Part shown: positions 14,102 through 30,746 of the stretch, piece after piece
Position numbering within the stretch: position 1 is the stretch's first letter
How the letters are laid out: each line of letters opens with the position of its first letter
NCBI GenBank assembly: GCA_963648975.1
Contig: CAVJFW010000001.1
Coordinates: 4,199-68,198 of the forward strand
Length of the DNA stretch: 64,000 nt
From: a bacterium
GTDB lineage: Bacteria; Bacillota_I; Bacilli_A; RFN20; CAG-288
Reading direction: 5' to 3'
The notes under the pieces: model-generated
Told to the model about the DNA's origin: nothing
Seen by the model: the letters and a program-made list of their open reading frames with translations, nothing else
The model's database searches: none
Program-made: the position numbers and the translations under genes

Positions 14102-14192
14102 GGAGTAGTACTCAAGTTGGTGAAGAGGAGTCCCTGCTAAGGACTTAGTGCGAGAAATCGCAGCGGGAGTTCAAGTCTCCCCTACTCCGCCA
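14102..14192 (+). tRNA. tRNA-Ser (anticodon GCU), with long variable arm and encoded CCA
   Basis: 7-bp acceptor stem GGAGTAG/CTACTCC. Anticodon stem AGTCC/GGACT with loop CTGCTAA. Long variable arm GTGCGAGAAATCGCAGC. T-arm GGGAG-TTCAAGT-CTCCC. Discriminator G then CCA. Confidence 0.88.
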
Positions 14193-14400: not shown

Positions 14401-14913
14401 ATGTTTGGAATCAATGACAAGGTGATGGACAAAAACGGAAAGATTTTTTCCATTGTTTCCATTGAGAAAAAAGACTTTGGCACAGGCGATGAGGATTATT
14501 TTGTCATGGAACCATCCTTCAGATATGACTTCAACCCAGGATACATGGCTTTCATCCCGGTTGCCAAATCGGAATTGCTTCTTAAACCGATCATGACAAA
14601 GGAAGAGGCACTAGCCCTTGTCGACCTTCTTCCCGCGCTTGAACCCCTGCCTGAGGTGTCTCCCAGGGAAAGAAGAGTCTTCTTTGCCAAAATCATCGCT
14701 TCCGGTGACAGGAAGGAAATCATGAAGGTCATCAAGTCGCTTGTCACATACCGTGAGGAAAGAAGAAAGACGAACAAACCTTTCTCTGATTATGACAGAA
14801 GACTTCTCGACAGTCTGAAGGTGATGGTCGACAATGAATTTTCCATCGCTTTGGGTGTCTCTCCGGAATCTGTCGGTTCATTCATTTATGAAAGGACCGG
14901 TTATAGTCTTTAG
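14401..14913 (+). CDS. CarD/CdnL-family RNA-polymerase-binding transcription factor
   Basis: N-terminal CarD_CdnL_TRCF-like block (FGINDKVMDKNGKIFSIVSIEKKDFGTGDEDYFVMEPSF) and a C-terminal helical region. RBS AAAGGAGAAATC upstream. Confidence 0.55.
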   Translation: MFGINDKVMDKNGKIFSIVSIEKKDFGTGDEDYFVMEPSFRYDFNPGYMAFIPVAKSELLLKPIMTKEEALALVDLLPALEPLPEVSPRERRVFFAKIIASGDRKEIMKVIKSLVTYREERRKTNKPFSDYDRRLLDSLKVMVDNEFSIALGVSPESVGSFIYERTGYSL

Positions 14914-16868: not shown

Positions 16869-17669
16869 ATGAGCTATACGGCACGTCAGGTCTTGTTGTC
16901 TTTGTGTATGCATTTTGAGGGTGACTATTCAAAAATGCTCGACGAACTCTCCACCAGGAGACATTCCCTTTCAAATGAGGAGATGGATGGGATTCTGTCC
17001 CAGAAGATGGAATCCAGCTATTGCTGCATCACCGATTCGGATTATCCGGCATGCTTCAAGGAGGTCGTGAAACCACCTCTTGTTTTCTTCTACTATGGGG
17101 ATATATCCCTTCTTTCGAAGAAATACCGTCTCACATGCGTGGGAACGAGGAAACCGACAATCTATCAGAATGAGACCTGCTACAGGTTCATCTCCGAGAT
17201 GGAAGAGAAGATGAAGGATGAGGTCGTCATCGTCTCCGGCATGGCCAAGGGACTTGACCAGACCTGCATGAAGGCAGCGATGACCAGAGGCGCACCTCTT
17301 GTCAGCATCATCGGATCGGGAATCGATGACCCGTATCCGGAGGACAATGGTGGAATCTATGAGTACTGCAAGTCCGGTAAGGGACTTGTCATTTCGGAAT
17401 ATCCTCTGAAGATGAAGGCAAAGCCGGAGAACTTCCTTTTCCGCAACCGCCTTCTTGCCGCAGCCGGGAAGGCTCTTTTTGTCGGTGGTGCGAAGAAGAG
17501 ATCCGGTACTTCCTCGACTGTCAGCTATGCCCTCGAGGATGGGAAAAATGTCATGGCACTACCATGCAATGTGTCAGGTGATGACCTGACAAATCTGATC
17601 ATCAAGGATGGCGCATATCCTGTTCTCGACAGCGATGATCTTGTCAATGAGATCAAAGAAACCAAATAG
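16869..17669 (+). CDS. dprA: DNA processing protein DprA (Smf)
   Basis: Rossmann-fold DprA motifs (VSGMAKGLDQ...; GSGIDDPYP; SEYP...P.NF.RNR). Lies immediately upstream of topA as in Bacillus smf-topA. Confidence 0.75.
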   Translation: MSYTARQVLLSLCMHFEGDYSKMLDELSTRRHSLSNEEMDGILSQKMESSYCCITDSDYPACFKEVVKPPLVFFYYGDISLLSKKYRLTCVGTRKPTIYQNETCYRFISEMEEKMKDEVVIVSGMAKGLDQTCMKAAMTRGAPLVSIIGSGIDDPYPEDNGGIYEYCKSGKGLVISEYPLKMKAKPENFLFRNRLLAAAGKALFVGGAKKRSGTSSTVSYALEDGKNVMALPCNVSGDDLTNLIIKDGAYPVLDSDDLVNEIKETK

Positions 17670-17771: not shown

Positions 17772-19934
17772 ATGAAACTTATTATCGTTGAATCTCCTCA
17801 TAAGAGTGAAACCATCGAACATTTTTTGGGCTCTGACTTCAAGGTCCTGGCCTCAAAGGGACATATCCGCGATCTTGCCTCCAACGGCAAGATGGGATTG
17901 GGTGTCGACATCGAAAATGGATTCGTGCCGAATTACAAGATATCTCCGGACAAGACCCAGATCGTCAAGGAACTCAAGGCTGCCGTCAATAAGGCGGATG
18001 TCGTATATCTCGCAACCGACCCTGACCGTGAGGGAGAAGCCATCTCCTATCATTTGGCGACCGTTCTCGGCCTTGACATCAAGTCAACTCCAAGACTCGA
18101 ATTCCATGAAATCACCAAGACGGCCATCCTGAAGGCCTTGGAAAATCCAAGACACATCGACATGGATCTTGTCGAATCCCAGGAAGCCAGAAGAATCATC
18201 GACAGACTCATGGGTTATCGTCTTTCCTATCTTCTCCAGAAGAAAATCAAATCCAGAAGCGCCGGAAGAGTCCAGTCCGTCGTACTGAAGTTCATCGTCG
18301 ACAAGGAGAGGGAAATTCAGGCTTTCGTTCCGGTCGAATATTGGACGATCACAGGTCAGTTCGGTTCCGAGAATGAGAAATTCAAGGGCGAACTTGCCTC
18401 TCATGACGGTAAAGCCGTCAAGATCAACAACGAGATGGAAGCGGATGACATCATGAAGAATCTTCCTTCTGAGATGACTGTCACCAGTGTGAAGAGCCAG
18501 GTCACGAAGAACGAGCCTAAGCCACCGTTCATCACCTCAACCATGCAGCAGGAAGCCTATTCCCAGTGCCATTTCTCCACCAAGAAGACATCATCCCTTG
18601 CCCAGCTTCTTTATGAAGGTAAGGAAATCGATGGTGCCTTGACCGGTCTTATCACCTACATGAGAACCGACTCCACGAGACTTGCCGATGAATTCGTCAC
18701 CCAGGCCAATCAGCACATTCTTGCAAGATATGGCAAGGAATATCTCGGCCATGCCCATATGCAGAAGGCCGGAAAGAACATCCAGGATGCCCACGAAGCC
18801 ATCCGTCCTACCGACATCACCCTGACCCCGGAGAGAGTCAAGCCGTATCTCACACGTGATGAGCTTGCCCTATATACCTTGATCTATGATCGCGCCGTAA
18901 GTTCACTCATGGCCGCAAGAAAGAATCAGGTCACGACCATCACCATCAGCGGAAACGGCTATGACTTCACCAGCACCGAGACCAGGAACATCTTCCCAGG
19001 CTATTATGCCATCTATGGCAAATACGAGGAGAAGGAAGAGGTCAGCAAACTTCCCAAGGACATCAAGGAAGGAGATATCTTCCCTCTTGGCGATGTCGAG
19101 AAGCTTCAGCACTTCACCAAGGCTCCTTCAAGATACACGGAAGGAAAAATCGTCAAGCTCATGGATGATTCCAAGATCGGAAGACCATCCACCTATGCCA
19201 GCACCGTGTCCACACTCCTGACCAGAGATTATGTCGTCAGCCAAAAGGGTTCTTTTGTTCCGACAGAACAGGGCACTCTGACGGTCGACAAGCTTGAGGA
19301 ATATTTCCCGAAGTACATGGATGCCGGATATACGGCAGCCATGGAAGAATCACTCGACAACATCGCCGACGGAAAGACGGATCGCAATCAGCTTCTAAGT
19401 GACTTCTGGGAGGAATTCACGAATTATTTCGAATCTGCCGAGAACAACATGGAGAAGCTTCAGCCAAAGGTCGTCGAGGGAAGAGTCTGCCCGAACTGCG
19501 GAAAACCGCTTGTCTACCGCAAAGGCAAATATGGAGAATTCATCGGCTGCTCCGATTATCCCAACTGCACCTATATCGAAAAGGATAAACCGGATGTCAT
19601 CGTCGACCACGTCTGCCCGGTCTGCGGTGGCCAGCTTGTCTTAAGAAAAGGCAAGAGAGGTGAATTTGTCGGCTGCATGAACTATCCGAAGTGCACCTAC
19701 ATGGAAGACAGGGAAGGTCATCCGATTTCCAAGGAAAAGAAGCCTGTCGAAATCCCTGCCGATGCTCCGATATGCCCACAGTGTGGTGTCGGACATCTCA
19801 TCGAGAAGAAGAGCAGATGGGGAAAGACCTTCATCGGCTGTTCCAATTATCCAGCCTGCCATTACATCCAAAAGGATGAAAATGAGAAAGCTGAGACCAA
19901 GACGACGAAGAGACGTTATTCCAAAAAGAAATAG
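17772..19934 (+). CDS. topA: DNA topoisomerase I with three C-terminal C4 zinc-ribbon modules
   Basis: Toprim N-terminus MKLIIVESPHK...E..D...LATDPDREGE. Catalytic region GLITYMRTDSTRL (Tyr). Three repeats of the form CPxCG...GEF.GCS.YP.C. Confidence 0.9.
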   Translation: MKLIIVESPHKSETIEHFLGSDFKVLASKGHIRDLASNGKMGLGVDIENGFVPNYKISPDKTQIVKELKAAVNKADVVYLATDPDREGEAISYHLATVLGLDIKSTPRLEFHEITKTAILKALENPRHIDMDLVESQEARRIIDRLMGYRLSYLLQKKIKSRSAGRVQSVVLKFIVDKEREIQAFVPVEYWTITGQFGSENEKFKGELASHDGKAVKINNEMEADDIMKNLPSEMTVTSVKSQVTKNEPKPPFITSTMQQEAYSQCHFSTKKTSSLAQLLYEGKEIDGALTGLITYMRTDSTRLADEFVTQANQHILARYGKEYLGHAHMQKAGKNIQDAHEAIRPTDITLTPERVKPYLTRDELALYTLIYDRAVSSLMAARKNQVTTITISGNGYDFTSTETRNIFPGYYAIYGKYEEKEEVSKLPKDIKEGDIFPLGDVEKLQHFTKAPSRYTEGKIVKLMDDSKIGRPSTYASTVSTLLTRDYVVSQKGSFVPTEQGTLTVDKLEEYFPKYMDAGYTAAMEESLDNIADGKTDRNQLLSDFWEEFTNYFESAENNMEKLQPKVVEGRVCPNCGKPLVYRKGKYGEFIGCSDYPNCTYIEKDKPDVIVDHVCPVCGGQLVLRKGKRGEFVGCMNYPKCTYMEDREGHPISKEKKPVEIPADAPICPQCGVGHLIEKKSRWGKTFIGCSNYPACHYIQKDENEKAETKTTKRRYSKKK

Positions 19935-19982: not shown

Positions 19983-20921
19983 ATGACAAAAACAGAATTT
20001 GTCGAGGCCAAGAAGGGCTTGGCTGTCGATAGGGATGAAAGAATCGAAAACAGCAGACAGAATCTCCTTCTCGACAAGAAAGCCTACAAGGAAAAGAAGA
20101 AGTTCTACCGCGAACAGAAGAAGCTCTACAAGCAGGAATATCTTGCCAAGAAGCAGTTTCTGAAGAATGATTTTTCCGGAAACCACGAAAAGGAGACCAA
20201 GATCAAGGAAAGATATCTTTCTCAGGAGGAAATTTCCCAGCTCAGGAAGAAACAGTTGCTTCCTTTCTATCTGCATAGCGAGGAAATCTTCAACATGGTC
20301 ACCCATATCGTCGGTGGTGGCCTTTCCGTCATAGGTCTGATCCTGGGTGTCATCTTTTCCGTGTTGAAGAAGCCGGGAGACATGGTCTCACTTATTTCCA
20401 TGATCATCTTCGGAATCACAAGTATCACCCTGTATGTGATTTCTTCCATCTATCATGGACTACATATCAACAGGGGAAAGAGAGTCTTTCAGGTTCTTGA
20501 CCACTGCACCATCTATATCCTGATTGCCGGAACATATGTTCCGATCACATTGATCGGTTTGGCTGACCATATGCCGTATAACGTCATACTTCTTTCCGTC
20601 GTCGTATTGCTTGCCGTTCTTGGTGTGGTCCTCAATGCGACCATGATGAGAAAGATTCTCGTCAAGGTCATATCCATGATTCTTTATATCGCCATCGGCT
20701 GGGGAATCATCTTCTTCTATCCTTGGCTTGTCACGGGATCATTAGGTATATCCGGTACATGGCTTCTCATCGGTGGAGGTATCACCTATACCGTCGGTTC
20801 CATCCTTTATGGCATAGGTTCAAAGAAGAGATACTGGCATTCCATCTTCCATATCTTTGTCATTGGCGGAACCTTGCTGCAGTATCTCTGTGTCCTTCTT
20901 TATGGCATCATCGGACTATGA
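19983..20921 (+). CDS. Hemolysin-III / PAQR-family 7-TM protein with a ~100-aa lysine-rich N-terminal extension
   Basis: Seven hydrophobic helices. Conserved HlyIII-type motifs (HIVGGGLSVIGLI; SSIYH; HSIFHIFVIGG). Confidence 0.7.
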   Translation: MTKTEFVEAKKGLAVDRDERIENSRQNLLLDKKAYKEKKKFYREQKKLYKQEYLAKKQFLKNDFSGNHEKETKIKERYLSQEEISQLRKKQLLPFYLHSEEIFNMVTHIVGGGLSVIGLILGVIFSVLKKPGDMVSLISMIIFGITSITLYVISSIYHGLHINRGKRVFQVLDHCTIYILIAGTYVPITLIGLADHMPYNVILLSVVVLLAVLGVVLNATMMRKILVKVISMILYIAIGWGIIFFYPWLVTGSLGISGTWLLIGGGITYTVGSILYGIGSKKRYWHSIFHIFVIGGTLLQYLCVLLYGIIGL

Positions 20922-22552
20922 CGGAGAAGAAAAAAAAGAGTCGCATCGAAAGAGTCCAGGACGAGGAATTTTCCTCTTTCCTGGATTATCTTGTCTCTGT
21001 CAGGGGGTACTCTGAAAAGACGGCCATATCCTATGGAGAGGATGTCGCCGCCTTTCTTATTTTTCTTTCTGAGCAGGGAAAGACGAAGGGACAGGTGGAC
21101 AAGGATGTCATAAGGACATATCTTTTGGAACTGAACCTGAAAAAGATGGATAAATCCTCCATCAAGAGAACTCTTTCCTCCCTCAGACATTTCTACAGAT
21201 ATCTCTATACCTTCAAGGGCTATGTGGGAAATCCTTTTGAGACGGTGTCCACACCAAAGAAGGACAAGAAGTTGCCAGGCTTTCTTTCCTATGATGAAAT
21301 CTGTGACTTCCTTGACGGAAATCTGAAAAGAACCGACTTTCTTGCCTCCAGGGATCAGGCTATACTGGAACTGCTTTTCGCTTCTGGGCTGAGATGTGCG
21401 GAAATCATCTCTCTTGATGTCTCCGACATCGATTATGACGTCAGGAGGGTCAAGGTCAGGGGAAAGGGAAACAAGGAAAGAATCGTTCCTTTTTCCATGA
21501 CATGTCTTGAAGCCTTGCGTTCCTATCAGACGATACTGAGAGAAAGAATCGTTGCCGACAAGAATGAGAATGCCTTCTTCCTCAATGCAAGAGGAAAAAG
21601 GATGACGGAACGGGGATTGGAATATATTGTCTCCGAGGCGGCGCTGAAGTCTGGTTTCCCATTGAAGATACATCCTCACATGCTCCGACATTCCTTTGCG
21701 ACTGAATTGCTCAACAACGGTGCTGATTTGAGAACAATCCAGGAATTCCTCGGCCATTCCTCCATCCGTACCACATCCATCTATACCCATGTCAGTTATG
21801 CTGAACTGAAAGATACATACGAAAGGTGCTTCCCAAAAATCATGAATCAGGAAAAGAAAAAAGCCGTCATCTTCGATTTCAACGGAACGATGTTCTTCGA
21901 CGAAGACAAGCACGTCGTCTCCTGGCGTGAGTTTGCCATGGAAAAATATGGGTTGGAAATCAAGGATGAGGATTTTCCTTGTCATATCCATGGCTTCAAC
22001 AACAAGGCCATCCTGGAATGGATGAGTGGAAAGAAACTTTCTGAGGAGGAAGTCGAAATCCTTTCCACCGAGAAGGAACTCATGTATCAGAAACTATGTG
22101 AACATGACAGGAAGAATCTGCATCTCGTATCCGGCCTGACCGAATTTCTTGACCTGCTGAAGAAAAACGGCATTGTTTTAGGTATCGCCACGGCCAGCCG
22201 GAAACCGAATGTGGATTGGTATATAAGGACATTCGGCCTTCTTGATTGGTTTGATGAAAAGAACATCATCTATGATGACGGAACCTTGACCAAGGGAAAA
22301 CCAGATCCGATGATCTATCTTCGTGCCTATGAGAGGTTAGGTGTGAAAAAGGAAGATACGATAATTTTCGAGGATTCCATCTCAGGGATCGAAAGCGCCA
22401 GCAAGAGCAATCCTCATATGGTCATCGGCATTAGGCCCATGGAAGACCTTCATCTGATAGAAGACAAGGAGGAATTGGCCTTTGCCATCAGTGACTATCA
22501 GGATATTCCTGAACAAGTGATGTCATTTCTTGGCCTGAAGGATGCAAAATGA
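20918..22552 (+). CDS. xerC: Tyrosine site-specific recombinase XerC/CodV ortholog fused to a C-terminal HAD-superfamily hydrolase domain
   Basis: N-terminal SAM-like domain and catalytic R...K...HxxR...Y motifs (LRCAEI; HMLRHSFATELL; SIRTTSIYTHV). C-terminal ~230 aa carry HAD motifs I-IV (VIFDFNGT; ...GIATAS; ...KGKPDP; ...FEDSISGIESA). ATGA overlap with the hlyIII stop. Conserved dprA-topA-xerC neighbourhood. Confidence 0.7.
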   Translation: MTEKKKKSRIERVQDEEFSSFLDYLVSVRGYSEKTAISYGEDVAAFLIFLSEQGKTKGQVDKDVIRTYLLELNLKKMDKSSIKRTLSSLRHFYRYLYTFKGYVGNPFETVSTPKKDKKLPGFLSYDEICDFLDGNLKRTDFLASRDQAILELLFASGLRCAEIISLDVSDIDYDVRRVKVRGKGNKERIVPFSMTCLEALRSYQTILRERIVADKNENAFFLNARGKRMTERGLEYIVSEAALKSGFPLKIHPHMLRHSFATELLNNGADLRTIQEFLGHSSIRTTSIYTHVSYAELKDTYERCFPKIMNQEKKKAVIFDFNGTMFFDEDKHVVSWREFAMEKYGLEIKDEDFPCHIHGFNNKAILEWMSGKKLSEEEVEILSTEKELMYQKLCEHDRKNLHLVSGLTEFLDLLKKNGIVLGIATASRKPNVDWYIRTFGLLDWFDEKNIIYDDGTLTKGKPDPMIYLRAYERLGVKKEDTIIFEDSISGIESASKSNPHMVIGIRPMEDLHLIEDKEELAFAISDYQDIPEQVMSFLGLKDAK

Positions 22553-22566
22553 AGTCACAAAAAAAT

Positions 22567-22612
22567 TGCGATGTCCCAACCGGATGCTATCCGGATGAGA
22601 CATCGCTTTTTT
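22567..22612. terminator. Bidirectional rho-independent terminator between the convergent xerC-HAD gene and the lipoprotein gene
   Basis: Nested hairpin GCGATGTC...CCGGATGCTATCCGG...GACATCGC followed by TTTTTTT. An A-tract lies on the other side. Confidence 0.65.
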
Positions 22613-22620
22613 TCAGAAAA

Positions 22621-23106
22621 TCAGTCGCCTAATATTGTCTTCAGGGCCGTGCCTTTGTAAAGCAGTTCGTATGAGATTGATGAATCAGATGGCTTTGTAT
22701 CGAATGTGACATGAATGTTTTCCATGGATACGATGCCGCTTTCGTCGGCCTTTGCCTTGCTGATGTCAATTGTGTCGACATGAGAACTGATATAGCTATA
22801 GGTCTCCGTGACACCGTTTGTGGAGATGTAGCCAGCTTTGAATCCCTCTGCAAAAAAGATACAGTCATAAGTCTTGCCATCGAATTTGAGCTTGAAGTCT
22901 GTCTTGTTGAGAGTGACGGTCTGTTCACCTTCGTTCAAGACGTTGACGGTCAGATAACTGACTTCCTTCTTGCTTTTGGCACTTTCATAAAATGTCTGGA
23001 AACCAGTGCGTTCATCCCTGTAAATCCTGAAATCACTGCTGTTTCCTGTTTCGGAACATGAACATAAAAATAATGGTACGAATGCCAATAATGCTAATCT
23101 TTTCAT
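22621..23106 (-). CDS. Small lipoprotein of unknown function
   Basis: Lipoprotein signal MKRLALLAFVPLFLCSCSE. No recognisable enzymatic motifs. Confidence 0.5.
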   Translation of the reverse strand: MKRLALLAFVPLFLCSCSETGNSSDFRIYRDERTGFQTFYESAKSKKEVSYLTVNVLNEGEQTVTLNKTDFKLKFDGKTYDCIFFAEGFKAGYISTNGVTETYSYISSHVDTIDISKAKADESGIVSMENIHVTFDTKPSDSSISYELLYKGTALKTILGD

Positions 23107-23360
23107 TTTGATACCTCTTTGCAGCAACTTATTATACAATTTATTTGATTTGTTTCAACTGAATAAATCAGTTCTTTATGAATGGTGGCTTGATGACTTG
23201 TGAACAAAAATGTTTGTGTCTGCTAACCTGCTTTTTTGGCAATTGTTCATTCATATACAAGTTGTTTTTGAGATTTTTTGATATGAAAATCTATGAAAAG
23301 ACTTTATTTGCACGGTTTGAGTATGTATACTAAATATAGACTAAATGTAAAAGAACAGCC

Positions 23361-24216: not shown

Positions 24217-25740
24217 TTATTTGTTTCTAGGCTTCCTGGCTTCAAAGAGAAAGAAGCAATAACGCGTATCCGGAATTTTCTTTATGGTGAAATGATAATT
24301 GTGATTGAAGGTGAAGCTTGTCGTCTGATCCATGACATAAGGTGTTTCCTTGATTATGTTTTGGTCAACCAGAAGACTGCGCAATTTCTGACTGCTGTTT
24401 GCCTGGTTGAAAAGTTCATCTTCGACAAAGACGAGCTCATAGGACTTCTTCACATCCTTTCCCATGTTCTCATCCTCCATAAGGGAATTGAAGAAATGGA
24501 TGAAGTCGTTTTTTCTTGTGGAGGATCTCAATTGTGAGATTCTGATGTTTGTTGCTTCGTTGTGATAGGTTATCAGCAATGCGTCATCCTTGAGCTGAAG
24601 GATGTTCCCTTTTGTGATCATGCTCTCCATATATTCCTTCAATAGGGAGGTGATGGAACTGTTTTCTATTTTTTTTGGAAGATGATGGTAGATGAAGTTT
24701 GAAAAAATGAGGGAATAGTTAGGCCTTACCTCATTTGCGTCGAATACATTTTCGTATCTGTCAGCCATGAGTCTATAGTTGGTGGCCAGTCTTTCGGCAA
24801 CACTTTTAGGTTCTATGACTTCTATCAGTTCTCCATACTGAAGGGACCAATAATAGAATGCTGCCTCGTCACAATAGAAGGAAACGAAGGTGTTTCCGTC
24901 TTTTGTCTTGAATTCAGCCTTCTTGCCAAACCAGTCGATGATGTCAGAATATGCCTTTTCATCGTGGACCAATAGCTTACAGAAGGATACTTTGTCTCCG
25001 AAGATGTAGACATGACGGTTTATGTAGTCATAGATGTCAAACTTGTTTCCGTTGTTGACGCTTTCAATGTTGATGCAGTCTGCTTCTTCGATTTTGATGT
25101 TGCGGATATAGTCGACGCGGAATGTTGAAATATTCCTATGGTTCTTCATGCTTGCAAGGAGATAGTATTTGCCGAAGTTGTTGACAAGATAGAATGGTGA
25201 GACCTGATAAATGAATCCATGCATTCTCAGGGTTTCATTCCCATCCCTGTCATAGTCTGCATATTGGAAGGATATCTGTTTTTTCTGCTCGACGGCTTCG
25301 TTGATGATTTCGATGTTCAAAAAGAAATCCGCATCGGAGTTTCTGTTGATGTCTTCCGATTTGTAGAGATAGGCATACTTTTTCCTTTGATTCCTGGAAA
25401 GCATTCCATATAGGACGTTGGACAAATCCTGAGCCTGTTTTCCGGTGATGTTCTTTGAGGAGAAGATGGCGTCGACCAGAAACTGGATCTGCGACTCATC
25501 CAGTTCCCTTGAAAGGAGAGCAACTCCGCCTTTCGTTCCCTTCTGGTTGATGTCATAGCCGAGCTCGGAAAGAAGACTGATGTATTTTCCGACCGTCTTT
25601 CTTTCCAAGGTGATTCCTGAATCGTTTTCCACTTTCTGGATAATGTCCTTTTGGGTAAGATAGTGATCTTTGTCGCTGTATTCCTTCAATGTGTTGAGAA
25701 TCAATAGGATGGTTGCGCTCTTTGTGTCTTGAATAAACAT
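24217..25740 (-). CDS. HTH-WYL-WCX type transcriptional regulator (YafY/PafBC-like) with an additional ~175-aa C-terminal domain of unknown function
   Basis: N-terminal winged HTH (ILLILNTLKEYSDKDHYLTQKDIIQKVE...GITLERKTVGKYISLLSELGY). WYL-domain signature (ISFQYADYDRDGNETLRMHGF...YYLLA...RNISTFRVDYIRNIKI). A WCX-like segment, then an extra C-terminal region. Confidence 0.65.
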   Translation of the reverse strand: MFIQDTKSATILLILNTLKEYSDKDHYLTQKDIIQKVENDSGITLERKTVGKYISLLSELGYDINQKGTKGGVALLSRELDESQIQFLVDAIFSSKNITGKQAQDLSNVLYGMLSRNQRKKYAYLYKSEDINRNSDADFFLNIEIINEAVEQKKQISFQYADYDRDGNETLRMHGFIYQVSPFYLVNNFGKYYLLASMKNHRNISTFRVDYIRNIKIEEADCINIESVNNGNKFDIYDYINRHVYIFGDKVSFCKLLVHDEKAYSDIIDWFGKKAEFKTKDGNTFVSFYCDEAAFYYWSLQYGELIEVIEPKSVAERLATNYRLMADRYENVFDANEVRPNYSLIFSNFIYHHLPKKIENSSITSLLKEYMESMITKGNILQLKDDALLITYHNEATNIRISQLRSSTRKNDFIHFFNSLMEDENMGKDVKKSYELVFVEDELFNQANSSQKLRSLLVDQNIIKETPYVMDQTTSFTFNHNYHFTIKKIPDTRYCFFLFEARKPRNK

Positions 25741-30695: not shown

Positions 30696-30746
30696 AATAT
30701 CCGCATGTCATCTTTCTTTGCTGAAAGAATGACTGCGGATATTTTG
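30696..30746. terminator. Bidirectional terminator between the convergent fbp and dnaJ genes
   Basis: Long imperfect hairpin AATATCCGCATGTCAT...ATGACTGCGGATATT followed by TTTT. Confidence 0.6.

Follow-up and report, generated by a model that had tools for sequence, protein, structure and literature searches.

Why should a tyrosine recombinase of the XerC/CodV type share one polypeptide with a hydrolase domain of the HAD superfamily? The question arises from a 64-kb stretch of bacterial DNA (contig CAVJFW010000001.1; the whole stretch is referred to as the window), in which a single open reading frame (ORF) on the plus strand at 20918..22552, here designated xerC::HAD, encodes both. An initial annotation of the sequence had singled out this fusion and had proposed that it might couple recombination to a phosphatase activity, or that its C-terminal part might be a pseudo-enzyme. 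Our results show a genuine and rare fusion, restricted to a single lineage, that has proved labile in evolution. We favour, with a probability of roughly 0.65, the explanation that the protein carries two independent activities on one chain and that it arose by loss of the stop codon between translationally coupled neighbours.

A XerC-type recombinase continues in frame into a HAD-IA domain

As the initial annotation had described, the frame continues from the recombinase into the HAD domain without a stop: the ORF runs uninterrupted from an ATG at 20918 to a TGA at 22550-22552 and contains 544 codons, for 544 amino acids (aa), before the stop. The ATG overlaps the stop codon of the preceding gene, hlyIII, in the sequence ATGA. 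Because M1 is at least 90% conserved among homologs and aligns with their N-terminal Met, this ATG is favoured as the start codon over an in-frame TTG at 20723. An A8 homopolymer occupies 20930-20937, within codons 4-7 (KKKK); slippage could occur here and would cut the protein short.

Residues 20-308 form a complete recombinase of the XerC/XerD type and residues 315-505 a HAD-IA hydrolase. All features of the gene lie on the plus strand. The recombinase comprises a core-binding, SAM-like N-terminal domain at 20975..21208 (residues 20-97; Pfam PF02899 Phage_int_SAM_1, 64 bits), predicted as a helical bundle with a predicted local distance difference test score (pLDDT) above 90, and a catalytic domain at 21335..21802 (residues 140-295; Pfam PF00589 Phage_integrase, 158 bits) with a fold similar to that of XerA, XerD and XerH. 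The Xer C-terminal helix (residues 294-304) and a K/E-rich linker (residues 309-314) follow at 21797..21859, as delimited by pLDDT, alignment and junction DNA. The linker is variable, with 6-20 aa across homologs, and the DNA encoding it is A-rich with an A6 run. The HAD-IA domain with its C1 helical cap occupies 21860..22432 (residues 315-505). Pfam HAD_2 matches residues 317-501 with 87 bits against a gathering cut-off of 23.8, and the scores of all three Pfam domains far exceed their gathering cut-offs. A weakly conserved tail (22433..22549, residues 506-544) ends the protein; its mean identity to the query is 25%, compared to 60% for the two domains, and its nonsynonymous divergence (dN) is high.

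Both catalytic sets are complete, as had been claimed from the sequence. In the recombinase the residues are R159, K183, H254, R257, H280 and Y289, and they are conserved in alignments of 68 and of 106 sequences. Motif I of the HAD domain, FDFNGT (21872..21889, residues 319-324), contains the nucleophile Asp320 and Thr324, and Asn322 replaces the general acid/base Asp at the Asp+2 position; S427 (motif II), K461 (motif III) and E485-D486 (motif IV) complete the set. Catalytic residues of both halves are invariant or at least 90% conserved among 68 homologs, and FDFNGT, S427, K461 and E485-D486 are invariant across these 68 fused proteins.

Profile models gave a similar picture. The best NCBIfam model for the N-terminal 308 residues is XerC (TIGR02224) with 319.7 bits, 15 short of the 335.15-bit equivalog cut-off, which is an annotation threshold and not a biological property; the XerD model is second (281.9 bits against a cut-off of 329.6), and the cut-off of the XerA/integron-integrase model is also passed. 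The two-domain architecture, the catalytic R-K-H-R-H/W-Y set and the chromosomal position are all those of an Xer recombinase. When the C-terminal 233 residues were searched alone, they were assigned to HAD-IA: they pass the general model TIGR01509 (HAD-SF-IA-v3) with 45-49 bits against 29.4, possess motifs II-IV and carry the C1 cap between motifs I and II. Among NCBIfam subfamilies they lie nearest to β-phosphoglucomutase/YqaB, below the equivalog cut-offs; the β-phosphoglucomutase equivalog TIGR01990 gives 86.5-89.4 bits against 189.4, and the Asn is present at Asp+2. The canonical motif I, DxDx(T/V), is thus departed from at one position, with nucleophile and Thr present and Asp+2 invariantly Asn. 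NCBI names for members of the family are either "HAD-IA family hydrolase" or "site-specific tyrosine recombinase/integron integrase"; each covers one half of the fusion only, which is a warning for annotation.

The chromosomal position identifies the recombinase further. The gene order in the window is rbgA-rnhB-dprA-topA-hlyIII-xerC::HAD, and the order dprA-topA-x-xerC, where x is a variable gene, is repeated in relatives. A tblastn synteny analysis found (rbgA-rnhB-)dprA-topA-trmFO-xerC in 8 Bacilli loci, from three Bacillus species, Psychrobacillus, a Coprobacillaceae metagenome-assembled genome (MAG), Candidatus Onthovivens, an Erysipelotrichaceae MAG and Anaerorhabdus. An unfused relative of the clade (L091) also retains dprA-topA-trmFO-xerC. 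The fusion gene is the positional ortholog of Bacillus codV/xerC, in agreement with the initial annotation, which had placed it at this conserved position. Like the Bacillus subtilis CodV/XerC(D) recombinases, the protein has the two-domain architecture, the full catalytic set and the position after dprA-topA. Unlike CodV, it bears a 230-aa C-terminal HAD domain, and unlike the Bacillus codV locus, its locus has hlyIII in place of trmFO and no hslVU/codY after the fusion gene.

The rare fusion is found in independent assemblies of a single lineage

At least two contigs from NCBI and Logan assemblies encode the identical 544-aa protein, and two further cluster members are also of 544 aa; this excludes the assembly read-through that the initial annotation had named as a concern. 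Moreover, about 70 homologous clusters (at the 90% identity level), 43-100% identical to the query and 519-567 aa long, carry both domain sets in independent assemblies, and their linkers stay in frame while varying in length and sequence. P0002 and P0004, the two closest relatives, each have the fusion on a contig of their own, in the context topA-hlyIII-fusion-cdaA. The architecture is as unusual as first supposed: an exhaustive protein search among 1.84 billion proteins returned 2 representatives at 50% clustering. Relatives are named "Bacilli bacterium" and "Candidatus Enterosoma", and the host lineage is one of uncultured, probably gut-associated Bacilli. A literature search retrieved no description of an Xer-HAD fusion and nothing mechanistic on the solved HAD structure 6W04 or on xerC-yigB, both considered below.

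Averaged over all pairs of the 68 fused proteins, identity comes to 0.557 in the Xer half and 0.558 in the HAD half. Comparison with P0002, the closest relative, gave a ratio of nonsynonymous to synonymous divergence (dN/dS) of 0.089 (Xer) and 0.076 (HAD), at a dS of 1.3-1.5. By these sequence measures, both halves are under selection and equally constrained.

The same search returned long proteins with two matching stretches, which were considered as Xer-HAD candidates and rejected: 10 of about 35 were scanned with Pfam, and all 10 proved to be tandem Xer-Xer proteins. Such proteins of 618-870 aa, with two complete tyrosine-recombinase modules (P0274, P0275, P0279, P0282, P0288, P0291, P0352, P0377), account for about 30 of the 150 representatives listed.

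Fused and split states alternate in the clade

The initial annotation had stated that the fusion would be refuted if close relatives had two genes instead, divided by a stop codon. Such genes do exist, in relatives with a XerC 50-63% identical; they leave the fusion standing and reveal instead its origin and its reversibility. In these relatives xerC (307-313 aa) is followed by a separate HAD gene of 226-231 aa that starts ...(V/I)IFDFNGTMF. The two genes overlap by 4 nucleotides (nt; GTGA) in L003, by an ATGA in L010 and by 8 nt in L088 (Candidatus Enterosoma), and are separated by a 1-nt gap in L005. Synteny is otherwise unchanged in the split loci, and a Shine-Dalgarno sequence for the HAD gene lies inside the 3′ end of xerC. 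The overlapping or 1-nt-spaced stop and start codons point to an origin of the fusion via stop-codon loss. Furthermore, A5-A6 runs occur in the A-rich junction DNA of several loci, that of the window among them, so that a one-base insertion or deletion would suffice to switch between the fused and the split state.

In a tree of the HAD domains (neighbour joining, no support values) all HADs linked to xerC, whether fused or split, fall into a group separate from the free-standing ones, which is consistent with a single recruitment of the HAD next to xerC. On a tree of the Xer domains from 69 fused and 37 unfused sequences, parsimony required 10-12 changes between the fused and unfused states, in the original and in eight bootstrap trees, compared to about 31 with shuffled labels. 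The state is thus inherited, though it has toggled repeatedly, at least 10-12 times.

We also found relatives in which XerC is kept and the HAD is not. In P0080 (331 aa) the HAD is absent, and xerC is directly followed by the ODP and cdaA genes that come after the fusion in L001; a downstream HAD is likewise missing from P0101. Compared to its near-identical fused sister P0068, P0099 has lost the FDFNGT region through a deletion that also shifts the frame. P0079 (10 member sequences) is a 512-aa fusion with an intact Xer half and a C-terminal half that aligns with the HAD but retains none of the four motifs, apparently a decayed domain kept on an intact recombinase. No DxN-HAD was found near xerC in more distant Bacilli. 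In some lineages, XerC can thus do without the HAD, and the retention of XerC beside a split, deleted or degraded HAD argues against functional coupling of the two.

The HAD half belongs to a subfamily with Asn at Asp+2

The nearest solved relative of the HAD half is PDB 6W04, a structural-genomics entry for a free-standing 231-aa protein of Entamoeba histolytica annotated as "HAD hydrolase, family IA, variant 3", which also has FDFNGT (E = 5e-34, 35% identity, template modelling score 0.89, root-mean-square deviation 2.4 Å). Results were the same for bacterial proteins from Clostridium botulinum, C. pasteurianum, Anaerofustis, Lachnospiraceae, Erysipelotrichaceae and a Prolixibacteraceae MAG: all 44 free-standing relatives that were read, of 216-248 aa and 35-60% identical to the query, have both FDFNGT(M/L) and the remaining motifs. 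Since Asn is found at Asp+2 in free-standing relatives too, it is not the result of decay caused by the fusion. Thus 6W04 and its bacterial relatives share FDFNGT and motifs II-IV with the fusion HAD and differ from it in being free-standing and without linkage to xerC. 6W04 is the only solved DxN-HAD and is eukaryotic, and the other relatives seen are bacterial, mostly Firmicutes; this distribution suggests horizontal transfer of a DxN-HAD into Entamoeba.

The gene contexts of free-standing DxN-HADs are unrelated to DNA and give no consistent functional clue; one of the genes lies 1 nt after a GH1 6-phospho-β-glucosidase gene in a phosphotransferase system (β-glucoside) operon. No publication on the subfamily or its function was found by literature search. 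Two clusters (P0249 and P0254, 361 aa, with 46 and 290 sequences) fuse a DxN-HAD to a C-terminal flavodoxin-like domain (PF12724/PF12641). Taken together with YigB, a HAD phosphatase of the flavin pathway, these flavodoxin-like fusions make a flavin-related substrate of DxN-HADs a lead.

The AlphaFold2 model of the fusion, computed with a 68-sequence alignment, has four cap helices (residues 329-396) between motifs I and II, that is, a C1 cap. This cap marks HADs that act on small molecules, and HADs directed at macromolecules lack it. A role of the HAD on a DNA 3′-phosphate or on the phosphotyrosyl intermediate, as with PNKP-type HADs, was considered and rejected on account of the C1 cap, which is typical of small-molecule enzymes. 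Mean pLDDT of the model is 87, and most 10-residue blocks inside the three domains average at least 90. Residues 295-311, covering the Xer C-terminal helix and linker, have pLDDT below 50, the predicted template modelling score is 0.46, and the model predicts no fixed Xer-HAD arrangement or interface. The individual folds match those of Xer structures (XerA, XerD, XerH) and of 6W04.

The best characterised relative is the β-phosphoglucomutase of Lactococcus lactis, which shares the HAD-IA fold, the C1 cap and the nucleophile, Ser, Lys and Glu-Asp motifs with the fusion HAD, at about 24% identity. The natural enzyme needs Asp10 as general acid/base, and the fusion HAD has Asn at this place. Mutase activity by the β-phosphoglucomutase mechanism is therefore unlikely. 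The engineered D10N variant reproduces the DxN motif; it mimics the protonated Asp but is unable to protonate the leaving group, and substrate complexes become trapped (PMC11283535). By analogy, a natural DxN enzyme probably acts on substrates for which a general acid is unnecessary, has a different residue to serve as one, or binds its ligand tightly.

A probable pair of independent activities on one chain, and the competing explanations

The comparisons with relatives show that a DxN-HAD gene became the translationally coupled 3′ neighbour of xerC in an ancestor of the clade, with overlapping stop and start codons and an internal Shine-Dalgarno sequence. Small changes at the A-rich junction then removed the stop and created a single polypeptide, and flips between the fused and split states followed many times. 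According to the explanation that we favour, the N-terminal 308 residues would resolve chromosome dimers in the manner of any ordinary Xer recombinase. The HAD, on its flexible linker of 6-20 residues, would be an independent, capped, Mg-dependent enzyme of small-molecule phosphoryl transfer, with a substrate that may be a sugar phosphate, or a phosphate ester or anhydride with a good leaving group; a good leaving group is suggested by the substitution of Asn for the general acid/base Asp. The gain from the fusion would be at most co-expression and a 1:1 stoichiometry, with no new recombination mechanism. If the domains are independent, the clade offers a clear natural example of coupled neighbours that repeatedly fuse and split, and it draws attention to a HAD subfamily with a natural Asp+2-to-Asn change that is widespread in Firmicutes and has a solved structure.

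Several points weigh against independence. Conserved fusions have classically been taken to signal a functional link, and Gammaproteobacteria, including E. coli, independently couple the translation of xerC to that of another HAD-IA gene, yigB; two unrelated XerC-HAD pairings are an odd coincidence. In addition, the HAD is attached directly after the Xer C-terminal helix, which mediates subunit contacts in other tyrosine recombinases, and a 230-aa appendage at this place could affect synapsis. A search with hidden Markov models revealed no second Xer gene, and thus no XerD partner, in the window or in any of the loci. No dif site was found within the window either (Firmicutes/Proteobacteria core consensus, up to 3 mismatches, 0 matches), and a genome-wide search was not possible; dif is expected elsewhere in the genome, near the terminus, where XerC and XerD act together and are activated by FtsK. 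As to the history of the fusion, the trees are neighbour-joining only, and some of the unfused calls or toggles may be frameshift errors in metagenomes.

The E. coli locus deserves closer comparison. In dapF-yigA-xerC-yigB, as in the fusion clade, xerC is directly followed by a HAD-IA gene, and in K-12 the stop and start codons share 1 nt; the adjacency of xerC and a yigB-like gene is also kept in other Gammaproteobacteria. Cross-domain matches from Gammaproteobacteria that had been taken up as candidate fusions were rejected, since they are adjacent xerC and yigB-like genes 6 nt apart. Unlike the fusion, E. coli xerC and yigB are separate genes, and YigB is annotated as a phosphatase of the riboflavin pathway. 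YigB has the canonical DxD (FDLDNT) and is 21% identical to the fusion HAD over 145 residues (pairwise E = 0.004), which makes the two XerC-HAD pairings analogous and not homologous; the E. coli pairing is most likely of independent origin.

That the HAD regulates or assists XerC, for instance by sensing a metabolite or phosphoryl donor that gates dimer resolution or by supplying its activity at the site, is unlikely, although it is the alternative we take most seriously. Adjacency or fusion has been kept over 43-100% identity, with translational coupling when the genes are split; E. coli and other Gammaproteobacteria have coupled xerC to a HAD-IA gene on their own; the HAD adjoins the Xer C-terminal helix; and a domain with Asn where the general acid/base should be could be disposed to bind a ligand tightly or to persist as a phospho-enzyme, as in the engineered D10N variant of β-phosphoglucomutase (PMC11283535). 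However, several relatives have an intact XerC and no working HAD, more distant Bacilli have xerC without a HAD nearby, the pairing with YigB is not homologous at 21% identity, the model predicts no interface, free-standing DxN-HADs occur in unrelated contexts, and the literature search found no paper linking XerC and a HAD. The coupling of recombination to a phosphatase activity that had been proposed at the outset has found no positive support, given a HAD that is split, lost or degraded beside a retained XerC and the absence of a predicted interface. A more specific version, in which XerC and a HAD-IA protein form an unrecognised pair, the HAD binds or holds a phosphoryl group without turnover as a sensor that tunes dimer resolution, and the xerC-yigB coupling, for long without an explanation, is a second case, would be a long shot. 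If such a link were true, it would bring an unexpected metabolic input to chromosome-dimer resolution, and the fusion protein would be the most convenient system in which to test it.

A little more doubtful than functional coupling in general is the idea, also raised at the outset, that the HAD half is a non-catalytic pseudo-enzyme serving as a binding or scaffolding module. The invariance of N322, the absence of proton transfer and trapping of substrate complexes in β-phosphoglucomutase D10N, and the lineage P0079, which retains a fused C-terminal domain lacking every motif, would fit it. The invariant nucleophile Asp, motif II Ser, motif III Lys and motif IV Glu-Asp speak against it, as does the HAD dN/dS of 0.076 (about 0.08); moreover, DxN together with intact motifs is found in 6W04 and in every free-standing relative read, a pattern typical of a working active site. 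We consider it very improbable that the protein is a mobile-element integrase with a cargo domain: the Xer half does score 15 bits under the XerC equivalog cut-off and above that of the XerA/integron-integrase model, and automated NCBI names say "integron integrase", but the gene sits in the housekeeping synteny common to Bacillus codV, and no phage or plasmid record covers at least 80% of the protein, the best matches there being ordinary xerC next to hslV. There are also no flanking repeats and no mobile-element genes, and the sole tRNA gene in the window (tRNA-Ser, 14102-14192) is about 6.7 kb upstream; the preference of the initial annotation for an Xer recombinase over an integrase is thereby upheld. 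Finally, the chance that a spurious insertion or deletion in the A-rich junction joined two genes during sequencing or assembly is negligible. The A5-A6 runs and the split versions in relatives would allow it, but the protein is identical in independent assemblies, about 70 clusters have in-frame linkers that differ in length and sequence, and separate contigs of the closest relatives, P0002 and P0004, carry the fusion as well.

Neighbouring genes and other features of the locus

Upstream of the fusion gene and in the same orientation lie dprA (16869-17669, plus strand), topA (17772-19934, plus strand) and, directly before it, hlyIII (19983-20921, plus strand), all assigned with Pfam; the stop codon of hlyIII overlaps the ATG of the fusion gene. 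This HlyIII-family gene occupies the place of trmFO between topA and xerC in the fusion clade. Its protein is extended at the N terminus by about 95 aa, a K- and E-rich stretch that precedes the Pfam domain (residues 99-301). No convincing terminator was found between topA, hlyIII and the fusion gene. The transcription unit is closed by a bidirectional intrinsic terminator at 22559..22613 (A7, GC-rich hairpin, T7; fold energy -26.9 kcal/mol, z = -6.6), which is common to the fusion gene and to a convergent DUF4352 gene.

The latter, a lipoprotein gene at 22621-23139 on the minus strand, sits between the fusion and cdaA. It is missing at that spot in L095, L096, L008 and L001, where cdaA or ODP comes directly next. 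Part of the clade has a flavo-diiron-type gene (Lactamase_B/ODP) directly 3′ of xerC or xerC::HAD (L001, 11715-12920; L090, 5016-6218), and the L090 copy has a weak flavodoxin match. A 507-aa protein with a WYL-WCX domain is encoded at 24217-25740 on the minus strand, and the same place is taken by such a gene in L095 and L096; WYL-WCX proteins are a class of nucleic-acid- or ligand-sensing regulators.

On a larger scale, genes of the window lie on the plus strand up to about 30.7 kb and on the minus strand beyond, with the switch near 30700. A minimum of the cumulative GC skew at about 14 kb was considered as a replication origin and rejected, since the skew tracks the coding strand (C>G, A>T) on either side of the strand switch. 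Further upstream of the fusion, a 170-aa gene at 14401-14913 on the plus strand gives a sub-threshold CarD_C match (21 bits against 23.1), and a gene of equivalent size (170-173 aa, no Pfam match) lies at the corresponding position upstream of rbgA in relatives L001-L006, where this region was seen.

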